Assembly: GCA_963807605.1 (NCBI GenBank)
Contig: CAWECG010000001.1
Span: forward strand, 128,001 to 192,000
Reading direction: 5' to 3'
Length of the DNA stretch: 64,000 bases
Source: Candidatus Bathyarchaeota archaeon
Lineage (GTDB): Archaea; Thermoproteota; Bathyarchaeia; 40CM-2-53-6; RBG-13-38-9
Part shown: piece by piece, positions 18,274 through 25,151 of the stretch
Position numbering within the stretch: position 1 is the first letter of the stretch
Layout of the letters: each line of letters begins with the position of its first letter
Translations under genes and position numbers: made by a program
The notes under the pieces: model-generated
Seen by the model: only the letters and a program-made list of their open reading frames with translations
The model's database searches: none
What the model was told of the DNA's origin: nothing

Positions 18274-20089
18274 TCACATGCCCCAGAGCGGGTTCCCCTT
18301 TCTCATTATCTCTTTGAGTTCATCCAGAAGAGCCAGCTCTTCGGAGTTTAGGTAATCTCTAAGTCTTGTGGAGAGCTCCTTTGCTGATGGTTCGGGAACG
18401 ACCACATAGAGAACATCGCCTTCGAAGACATTTCTATTCATGACCGCTTTGTCTACTGAGACTGCAACTTGCATGCCTGCTTTTGCTTCGTCAACGTCTT
18501 TTCCTTTGTCTTGAAGTCTCAAGACTGTTCCAATCCTTTTGCCGTCCTTGTTTATCAGTGGGGCTTTCTGTCTGACCGTTCCTGCTAGGATCTCTACTCC
18601 GAATATTGCTGGTTTACTGTGTCTGAATACGTATCCTTGGAGAACGTGTATCTTCCCAGGCTTGATGTGGCGGGCTAGCTCCGCTTTCACATTTTCGGCT
18701 TTTTCAGCTTCCATCCACCTCGAGTAGCTGTCAAGCAAGTCATAGATCACGTCTGCCTGAATTACGGGGATGCCTCTTCTTCCTGCTTCTACCTCAGCAT
18801 CAGGGAGTAGTCTGACATTGAATCCCAAGACTACACCGAGCAGACGATCCTCCTCTCTCACTATGCCTGCCTCAACGACCTCTCGTTTGGAAATATCGCC
18901 TACATCGGCTAATCTTATCGGTGTGTTTGACTCTCTCAGTGACGCGATTATCGCCTCAAGAGCCCCCAGCGTGTCAGTCTTGAGGACGATTCCGTTTCGG
19001 TCGGTCTGGATCCTCAGACTCTCAAATTCTTCTTTAACCATCTTTGAGAAGGTTGCAGTAGATTCGCCTTCTGGACCAGCATATAGAGAGGAGCCTGCGA
19101 GGGCTTTCTCCAAGTTGGGGGCTACAATCTTGATGCCAGCAGCGGCCTTGACGCCGCGCACATTTGAGAACTTCTCTCGTGGATCTCTGATCTCATCGAG
19201 AGGTTTAGGAACAAGAATTGCCCGAACATTAGTAACTATGGGGCCTTCTTTGCCTCCCAGGACTATCTGGTCGCCGACATTCAATACACCATCATAGATG
19301 ATTGCGTTAACAGTTGTACCTAAGCCGGTTTCTTCTTTGACTTCTAGAACCGTTCCCTTAGCTGGTCCAGTAGTTGTCAATAGTTCTTCTTTCATGAATG
19401 ATTGGGTCAGTCCAACCAACATCGCAAGCAGTTCCCGGATTCCTTCCCCCGTCTTTGCGCTTGTCGGAATAATGGCGACCGTCTTGGTGAAGTCCTTGAT
19501 CCTATCGAATCTGTCCGCCTGTAAGCCAAATTTGGACAGTTCTCCCATGATGGTGTATACCCGGTTATCTATGTCTCTCTGGACTTCTGGAGGTTGTTGC
19601 GCGATCTCGGAACTGATCGATTTGGTATCGATTCTCCTCCATCCGGGTACCATGTCTATCTTATTTGCTGCGACCAAGAAGGGCGTTTTTCTAGTCTTCA
19701 GTATCTCTATGGATTCCTCTGTCTGAGGTTCAACGCCTTTCGTTATGTCGATAACGAGTATCGCGATGTCAGCAGCCGAACCTCCTCGACGTCGCAAGTT
19801 TGAGAAGCTCTCGTGGCCTGGGGTATCGATGAAGAGCAATCCCGGTATACCAATTTGGAATTTGAATTGTTCAAGGGTCTCCCCGTATACCTCCTTGATT
19901 GTTTCTGTCGGTAGGAGACTCGCGCCGATCCATTGTGTTATCAGTCCCGGCTCCCTCTTTGCGACAGAAGTGCCTCTGATCTGATCGAGAAGCGTTGTCT
20001 TGCCGTGATCTACATAGCCCGTCGCCGTGCGGTCAGTGAGTTTGCAACGTATGGCCTAGAACCACGACAATTGGCTGACGAATTGACAA
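18274..20089 (-). CDS. infB: Translation initiation factor aIF5B (IF-2), two exons: 20089-20051 and 20013-18274
   Basis: Exon 1 MSIRQPIVVVLGH joined to exon 2 VDHGKTTLLDQIRGT..ITQWIGA..FIDTPGHE..NKID; the ORF track misses the first 71 aa. Confidence 0.95.
20014..20050 (-). other. 37-nt bulge-helix-bulge (BHB) intron in the aIF5B mRNA
   Basis: Exon helix UCUA/UAGA, central helix GGCC/GGCU, two 3-nt bulges AU^A and AU^G, intron helix CGUUGC/GCGACG; removal restores GHVDHGKT. Confidence 0.92.
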
Positions 20090-20187: not shown

Positions 20188-20656
20188 TTACTCTTTGGGT
20201 TTGAGGCCAAGGAGGAATGCCGTCTCGGTAGGCTTGCTATAAGTTACGATTTCATTTTGCTCAAAGAATATCTTGATCTCGCGAGTCGCGTTCTCCATGC
20301 TGTCGGCAGCATGCGCTATATTCTGAGTTGTGTTCAAGGCAAAGTCGGCTCTAATGCTTCCCACATCGGCCTCTTGAGGATTTGTCACTCCAACAATTCT
20401 TCTGATCGCAATGACAGCATTCGGTCCCTCAACTACCATCGCGATTATGGGGCCGGATGTAATATGGTCAAGAAGCCTGAGATAGAAGTCCTTTGTTCTA
20501 TGCATCGAATAGAGAGTCTCAGCCTGAATCCTTCGACATTCTCAGGAGCTTTATTGCAGTTACGTTCAGGCCCTTTCTCTCAATTCTTGAGATTACTTGC
20601 CCGATGAGTCCCCTCATCACGCCCTCGGGTTTGATGAGAACTAATGTTCTCTCCAT
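20188..20656 (-). CDS. ndk: Nucleoside diphosphate kinase, +1 frameshift near 20528
   Basis: [20 protein letters not shown]-terminus, then [16 protein letters not shown] in another frame. Confidence 0.92.
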
Positions 20657-24072: not shown

Positions 24073-25151
24073 TGCTGTGTTGCGCGACTAGGTTTCAGTG
24101 ATGTTTTTCGCTTTTGTTGGCTGTCTTCAGGTTTCGTCTAGCCGTGTGTTGCTGTGGTTGTTTCTATCAGCATGTTGTATAGTGAGGCTTTGATCATCAT
24201 CTCCTGTGCCATGTTTTGCATCGTTTTGGCTGAGACGTATTCTCCGAAGGTTCGCTTCAGCGATGAGAAGGCTGATTCAGCCATCCATCTATACCCGTAG
24301 CCATGATTGTGTTTCCAGGCTTCAGGGTCTTTGAGGTATTCTTGGGCTACGAGCTTTCTGGGCATGCATCCTCCGGCCCTGCTGGATGTGTTCTTGCGCA
24401 CCTTGATGGCTGGCTCAATCCCTTTTGCGTTGAGATAGCGGAAGTTGCTTTTCATATCGTATGCTCCGTCGCCAATTGCCTTGGCGACCTTACCTTTCTT
24501 GGAGGCTTCATCAACAAGCGGCTGGAGCATCCCTCCGTCACCTGTCTTCTCATCCGTCACCTTCAAGGCGAGTATCTTCTTCCGCTTTACATCAACGGCG
24601 ATATGGATCTTGAGGTATCCGCGTCTCACCTTCCATTTATGGCGTATCCATTCGCCGCGGTTAGCCACCTTGATGCCTGATGCGTCCACCGCCAGGACTA
24701 TGTCGTCGCCATAATCTTTCTCATCCAGCTTCACATCTAACCTGTTCACGCGTCTATCTATGGTTGAATAGTCAGGCACATGGATCCTTGAGTCGAATCT
24801 TCTCAGGGCTTTGAGGAATCCTTCTGTCTGCCTGTAGGGTAGGTGGAATAGCAGGTGCATGTAGCCTAGAAGCCTGATGAAGATCTCAGGGTAGACGTAT
24901 TGTCCACCTTCCTTCCCAGTATTCATCTTTTCAAGCTCAATGTTCCACCTGTCAAGGATGCGTGGGTCAAGCAGGATCTCCCCACGCTTCACGAGACCCT
25001 CATTGATGCGTCTCCAATCTCTAGCAGCCAATCACAATCGTGGAATAGTTCTCTCACAGGCAATATAGATCATCCAACCACTTCCACGTCAATAAACCGA
25101 AAACTCAAACCTACATCCATAAACAAAAATGTCTAGTCATGCAACACAGCA
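24073..25151 (-). mobile_element. IS5-family (IS903-like) insertion sequence
   Basis: 19-bp terminal inverted repeats TGCTGTGTTGC(GC/AT)GACTAG with 2 mismatches; 8-bp TSD TTTTGCGT at 24065-24072 and 25152-25159. Confidence 0.93.
24138..25031 (-). CDS. IS5-family DDE transposase
   Basis: LPYRQTEG, PDYSTI, VDASGIK..GEW, KIHIAVD, GDGAYD, GYGYRWMAESAFS. Confidence 0.95.
   Translation of the reverse strand: MAARDWRRINEGLVKRGEILLDPRILDRWNIELEKMNTGKEGGQYVYPEIFIRLLGYMHLLFHLPYRQTEGFLKALRRFDSRIHVPDYSTIDRRVNRLDVKLDEKDYGDDIVLAVDASGIKVANRGEWIRHKWKVRRGYLKIHIAVDVKRKKILALKVTDEKTGDGGMLQPLVDEASKKGKVAKAIGDGAYDMKSNFRYLNAKGIEPAIKVRKNTSSRAGGCMPRKLVAQEYLKDPEAWKHNHGYGYRWMAESAFSSLKRTFGEYVSAKTMQNMAQEMMIKASLYNMLIETTTATHG

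Follow-up and report, generated by a model that had tools for sequence, protein, structure and literature searches.

A predicted bulge-helix-bulge intron in the sole aIF5B gene of an archaeon of the class Bathyarchaeia

In the present study, we examined infB, the gene for the translation initiation factor aIF5B, in a stretch of 64,000 nucleotides (nt) from an uncultured archaeon of soil, Candidatus Bathyarchaeota archaeon (assembly GCA_963807605.1, contig CAWECG010000001.1, positions 128,001 to 192,000). This stretch is called the window, and positions are given in its own numbering unless a contig is named. The gene lies on the minus strand and its reading frame is broken by a 37-nt insert. 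It is very probable that this insert is a real pre-mRNA intron with bulge-helix-bulge (BHB) junctions, of the kind known from cbf5, in the only aIF5B gene of the genome, and that splicing by EndA and RtcB would be needed for its expression. This kind of intron is already known; aIF5B as the host gene is new to the literature that we searched.

Reading frame and BHB fold of the infB junction

The gene is made up of the following parts.

20051..20089, minus strand: aIF5B (infB) exon 1; TTG start at 20089, 13 codons to VVVLGH, covering the beta-1 strand and the start of the G1/P-loop
20014..20050, minus strand: predicted BHB intron, 37 nt, phase 0, between His13 and Val14; in-frame UGA at 20035-20033
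18274..20013, minus strand: aIF5B exon 2; 579 codons and stop, above the cut-offs of both archaeal IF-2 models, TIGR00491 and NF003078

Excision of 20014-20050 restores VVVLGH/VDHGKTT and on translation gives a spliced aIF5B of 592 amino acids (aa). VDHGKTT is encoded in a different frame from exon 1, and the unspliced frame yields an 18-aa peptide, with the UGA met after five codons of the insert. The N-terminus encoded by exon 1 agrees with that of intron-less relatives. Exon 2 alone aligns from TIGR00491 position 13 on, so the first motif is lost without exon 1. Close homologues carry Bathyarchaeia labels. The genome, which is 94% complete in five contigs, holds one copy of infB, and the sole other match of the copy search was EF-2.

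On the minus strand exon 1 ends in GGCC AU and exon 2 begins with G UAGAUCAC. Around this junction the transcript was folded into these elements.

20002..20068, minus strand: exon-exon helix, 20068-20057 with 20012-20002; 11 pairs, one bulged U
20053..20056, minus strand: central 4-bp helix, 5' strand GGCC (exon 1)
20050..20052, minus strand: 5' bulge AU^A, predicted cut between 20051 and 20050 (EndA rule, PMC2738675)
20020..20049, minus strand: intron hairpin, 6-bp stem (20049-20044 with 20025-20020) and 18-nt variable loop
20016..20019, minus strand: central 4-bp helix, 3' strand GGCU (intron)
20013..20015, minus strand: 3' bulge AU^G, predicted cut between 20014 and 20013 (EndA rule, PMC2738675)

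The BHB is the predicted minimum-energy fold of the junction region, and one of the four pairs of its central helix (GGCC/GGCU) is G-U. Cuts by the EndA rule, after base 2 of each bulge, take out exactly 37 nt and are identical with the frame-restoring junctions; a cut site shifted by at least three bases upstream gives Gly-Tyr instead of Gly-His. When the 37 nt were shuffled between fixed exons, the central helix together with the 6-pair inner helix was obtained in 1.4 per 100,000 shuffles. In a genome-wide scan for strict BHB geometry with frame repair, by which relaxed cases are missed, the infB site was joint first (a three-way tie) on helix score among 27 candidates. The first-pass annotation of this DNA had proposed the same coordinates, sequence and fold (4-bp helix, 3-nt bulges, 6-bp helix), and all of these hold. 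Refolding and translation also agree with its proposal that the EndA rule removes 37 nt to leave GHVDHGK, and the UGA that it placed five codons into the insert is the one at 20035-20033.

We propose, with high confidence, that in this archaeon the infB transcript would fold into the BHB, a two-subunit EndA would cut each 3-nt bulge behind its second base, and RtcB would join the exons and probably circularise the 37-nt intron, so that aIF5B would be made from spliced mRNA only. Two proteins of the EndA family are encoded in the regions of C4:303386 and C3:661701; one of them exceeds the TIGR00324 cut-off and the other is like a structural (beta-like) subunit. A full RtcB is also present. The EndA of the host is predicted to be of the two-subunit, hetero-oligomeric type. 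The dependence of aIF5B on the tRNA splicing machinery, as suggested in the first-pass annotation, appears strongly supported by the comparison with relatives, the presence of EndA and RtcB and the single gene copy.

Several points weigh against this proposal. The splicing of the aIF5B transcript is read from DNA sequence and not from RNA. The folding energy by itself is unremarkable (z -1.72), and a few relatives have one central-helix mismatch or a short exon helix; relaxed BHB motifs are known in cbf5 (PMC2738675). The weaker part of the proposal concerns persistence, for which we favour, more tentatively, an intron that is mostly a neutral passenger. A broad-specificity EndA would tolerate such inserts, and they would persist in catalytic motifs because only their exact loss is survivable and inexact loss is lethal. 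The same catalytic-motif pattern is seen in the other mRNA inserts of the genome and in the repeated G1 and switch-I hits on infB across the class.

Conservation of the insert and alternative explanations

The insert stands at the same nucleotide of infB in all 16 family genomes, in both genomes of family f3 and in G081, which belongs to another order. A same-site insert was present in 21 of the 22 metagenome contigs that match the junction/flank pattern, and it was not found in families f2, f5, f6, f7, f8 and f10 of the same order. Its length among the carriers is 17, 30, 34-38, 40, 42 or 45 nt, with all three phases represented, and the exon-1 frame meets a stop in every insert checked, including those of in-frame length. 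In an alignment of 25 sequences, 92.7% of the cells at helix positions are paired, as compared with 26-49% in slid controls. Five of the six inner-helix pairs vary on both sides (compensatory changes), and the loop varies freely; a survey of related genomes for covarying BHB pairs had been proposed in the first-pass annotation. The central and exon helices change on one side only in this alignment, which leaves less covariation there; in G081 the central helix is GGUC/GACC. Furthermore, the synonymous codons flanking the junction are Leu YTA and Gly GGY in 28 of 28 carriers each, and in 23 and 32, respectively, of 64 intron-less infB genes, counts that include kin and are not independent tests. 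These codons appear to be fixed to preserve pairing.

An assembly error, or a dead gene with a small transposon scar, would also break the frame. The source genome shows many apparent small frameshifts relative to its G030 orthologues, which suggests that the assembly is error-prone and that frameshift claims from a single genome need outside support. One of these is in the neighbouring ndk gene (20188-20656, minus strand), where an extra base near 20527 is lacking in contigs of three runs and in all relatives checked; this frameshift is probably an assembly error. The infB insert is not, because independent DNA contigs carry it: those of two runs (X1 and X4, of one study) span it with two substitutions only, at 20026 and 20037, both in the loop. 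The insert is also found in dozens of separate assemblies, exon 2 is undamaged, and infB occurs only once in the genome. DNA without the 37 nt and a second intact infB, two of the objections foreseen in the first-pass annotation, were thus not what we found. No 14-mer of the insert recurs anywhere in the genome, tRNA introns included, which together with the same site in all family members speaks against a scar of a miniature inverted-repeat transposable element or other transposon. Overall, error or decay is largely refuted and its probability is close to nil. A self-splicing or homing intron and an intein were ruled out, as the insert is 37 nt, out of frame and without an Rfam match. A scan for bacterial-type promoters and terminators found nothing, which is uninformative for archaea.

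It may be argued that no splicing takes place and that a start codon in the 3' end of the insert gives aIF5B minus its first 13 residues, as annotated. In many relatives an in-frame start codon (TTG, GTG or ATG) does lie a few codons ahead of VDHGK, and from these the databases call products of 583-589 aa. In addition, the last six bases of the insert resemble Gly-His codons, a mimicry that arises because GGCC is a palindrome. We consider such a start very unlikely. The source insert contains no in-frame ATG, GTG or TTG, and the next start, at 19839, would drop both G1 and switch I. A stop codon stands immediately before VDHGK in three genomes (G002, G006, G007) and at locus L134, the protein sequence of exon 1 is conserved in all carriers, and the exon-1 strand aligns in the solved aIF5B; the strand that an internal start would remove presumably belongs to the core of the G domain. 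Searches of proteins with the spliced N-terminus and of the cluster members of close relatives returned no full-length aIF5B of the intron-bearing family, and the spliced-junction pattern had no match among the metagenome contigs, results that speak neither for nor against splicing. With a looser pattern an intron-less contig (L138) was considered as a spliced product and rejected, being 70% identical and outside the intron-bearing clade.

Two further intron sites were seen in infB of Bathyarchaeia. One is that of a BHB insert of 31-32 nt, one base downstream and inside the Val/Ile codon, which occurs in other orders (families f22, f24 and f28); this insert has a distinct central helix (GGCA/UGCC), restores the motif exactly and shows no direct repeat. 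Families f9, f11, f25 and f26 have inserts of 19-33 nt at the switch-I threonine. Both P-loop and switch-I introns occur in one gene in G081 and in a distant archaeon (L134, L144). The carriers are as follows.

L176-L182 (G080, G065, G070, G092, G084, G062, G094): one-base-shifted P-loop intron, 31-32 nt
L156-L158, L183-L185, L187, L134, L144: switch-I threonine intron

The shifted intron may be an independent gain or the result of intron sliding. In the protein tree, whose backbone is weakly supported, P-loop carriers fall into several groups with intron-less families between them; this patchy pattern would fit several gains or several losses, and likewise sliding, between which such a backbone is too weak to decide.

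The ribosome might instead pass over the hairpin by translational recoding (hopping, frameshift or read-through). The hairpin with its stop and a six-base near-repeat at both ends would suit this, and is loosely like the bypassing region of phage T4 gene 60. No single shift fits inserts of 17-45 nt in all three phases at one site, and a take-off codon CAY faces varying landing codons (TAT, TAG, CAA, AAA). The features that are conserved are those that EndA reads, and the one-base-shifted variant is free of any direct repeat. Recoding is, in our judgement, extremely unlikely, and a BHB intron is preferred.

Further probable mRNA introns in the same genome

Most tRNA calls in this genome contain introns. 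Many tRNA genes were mis-called by ARAGORN on all contigs, apparently due to several introns at non-canonical tRNA positions. In protein-coding genes, five more BHB inserts were identified.

C1:88030-88060, minus strand: argF, 31 nt
C3:875125-875156, plus strand: nadE, 32 nt
C4:128220-128245, plus strand: RNase HII (rnhB), 26 nt
C1 near 210690-210720, plus strand: EF-2, 31 nt
C3 near 1143680-1143700, plus strand: cbf5, 19 nt

Removal by the EndA rule restores a conserved motif in each of the five. The cbf5 insert lies between bases 1 and 2 of the catalytic Asp codon, the same site that has been experimentally proven in Crenarchaeota (PMC2738675). The source cell thus probably already splices one mRNA in the known way, which serves as an internal control. 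A homology scan against G030 recovered the infB, argF, nadE and rnhB inserts; its remaining matches had no canonical bulges or no exact restoration, look like small frameshifts or noise, and were rejected. The comparison is blind to introns common with G030, so the six predicted mRNA introns are a lower bound. The pcm gene of the source genome has no frame-breaking insert.

These findings may be extended to a broader reading, in which Bathyarchaeia run routine protein-catalysed mRNA splicing, at least six genes (aIF5B, EF-2, cbf5, argF, nadE and RNase HII) need EndA and RtcB, and the efficiency of splicing tunes translation capacity. Its multi-gene part alone is highly likely; regulation is the uncertain step, and the reading as a whole is doubtful. 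Splicing regulated in this manner would be a prokaryotic counterpart of eukaryotic IRE1/RtcB-type regulated splicing.

A related suggestion is that the intron is real and has been selected as a control point, either by making the supply of aIF5B and EF-2 depend on EndA/RtcB activity or by shielding the P-loop from intein homing. Two translation GTPases and cbf5 carry inserts in one genome, and negative regulation has been proposed for cbf5 (PMC2738675). Against this, argF, nadE and RNase HII are also targets and no common pathway is apparent, the intron is absent in sister families, and its loop is not conserved. The regulatory coupling put forward in the first-pass annotation is unsupported, and the intron-less sister families make aIF5B anyway. 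With regard to inteins, a match to PRK14845 (NCBIfam, 1049 positions) starts at the K of GHVDHGK, at model position 474. We take this model to be an intein-bearing IF-2, and the start of the match fits a putative insertion site of IF-2 inteins, which would lie five codons downstream of the insert; our literature search gave nothing usable on that site. No intein-sized infB was present in the 147 matched genomes of the class, where open frames reach at most 670 aa, and the idea of the same annotation that the intron blocks homing has found no support. A selected control point of either type seems to us unlikely, and a mostly neutral intron is favoured.

Relation to known introns and implications

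The closest known system is the cbf5 intron of Desulfurococcales and Sulfolobales (Watanabe 2002; Yoshinari 2006; Yokobori 2009, PMC2738675). Those introns are 16-44 nt long and are cut between bulge bases 2 and 3 (PMC2738675). The infB insert is likewise short, contains no open reading frame, has BHB junctions with the same predicted cut position, lies in a catalytic motif, is patchy in distribution and has a host with a predicted hetero-oligomeric EndA. It differs in that its host gene encodes aIF5B, a universal translation GTPase, its lineage is Bathyarchaeia and its motif is close to canonical, in contrast to the relaxed motifs of most cbf5 introns; cbf5 splicing was shown by cDNA, whereas that of infB is deduced from genomic data. 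In HVO_1309 of Haloferax volcanii (Schwarz 2020, PMC7714728), an mRNA is also processed by EndA at BHB sites, but these are in the 5' untranslated region and no reading frame is interrupted. Archaeal tRNA introns, at canonical and non-canonical positions, have the same motif, size range and enzymes, and the joined infB exons leave a stem and a 7-base loop like an anticodon arm; the infB substrate, in contrast, is an mRNA and shares no 14-mer with the tRNA introns of the genome. Euryarchaeal IF-2 inteins, as we understand them, are intervening elements in the same P-loop, about five codons off. They are spliced out of the protein and preserve the reading frame, whereas the 37-nt insert breaks it and encodes nothing.

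In the papers that we could search, cbf5 is the only archaeal coding sequence named with a BHB intron (PMC7714728; PMC2738675). We found no paper on an infB intron in a search that left most subscription journals outside, and none is described in a structure paper of 2025, a review of 2026 or a preprint of the same year on the tRNA introns of Asgard archaea; within this search, the statement of the first-pass annotation that no infB example is established stands.

Two side observations were made. An open reading frame of 297 aa at 24138-25031 (minus strand), among biosynthetic genes, looks by eye like an IS5-type DDE transposase. Three archaeal-type aIF5B proteins (P0055, P0227, P0235) are labelled Eubacterium cellulosolvens at NCBI and are probably mis-binned or mis-named records.

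The intron would explain a systematic annotation error, in which every close relative in protein databases has a truncated or false infB N-terminus, and this mis-annotation affects marker-gene work. The three positions in one gene offer a test bed for intron origin, sliding and loss. With an intron in the sole copy of an essential initiation factor, translation in this lineage could not proceed without mRNA splicing. Given the five other inserts of this genome, such introns in archaeal mRNAs look common and not exceptional, and the more interesting wider point is that several essential mRNAs per genome may carry them.
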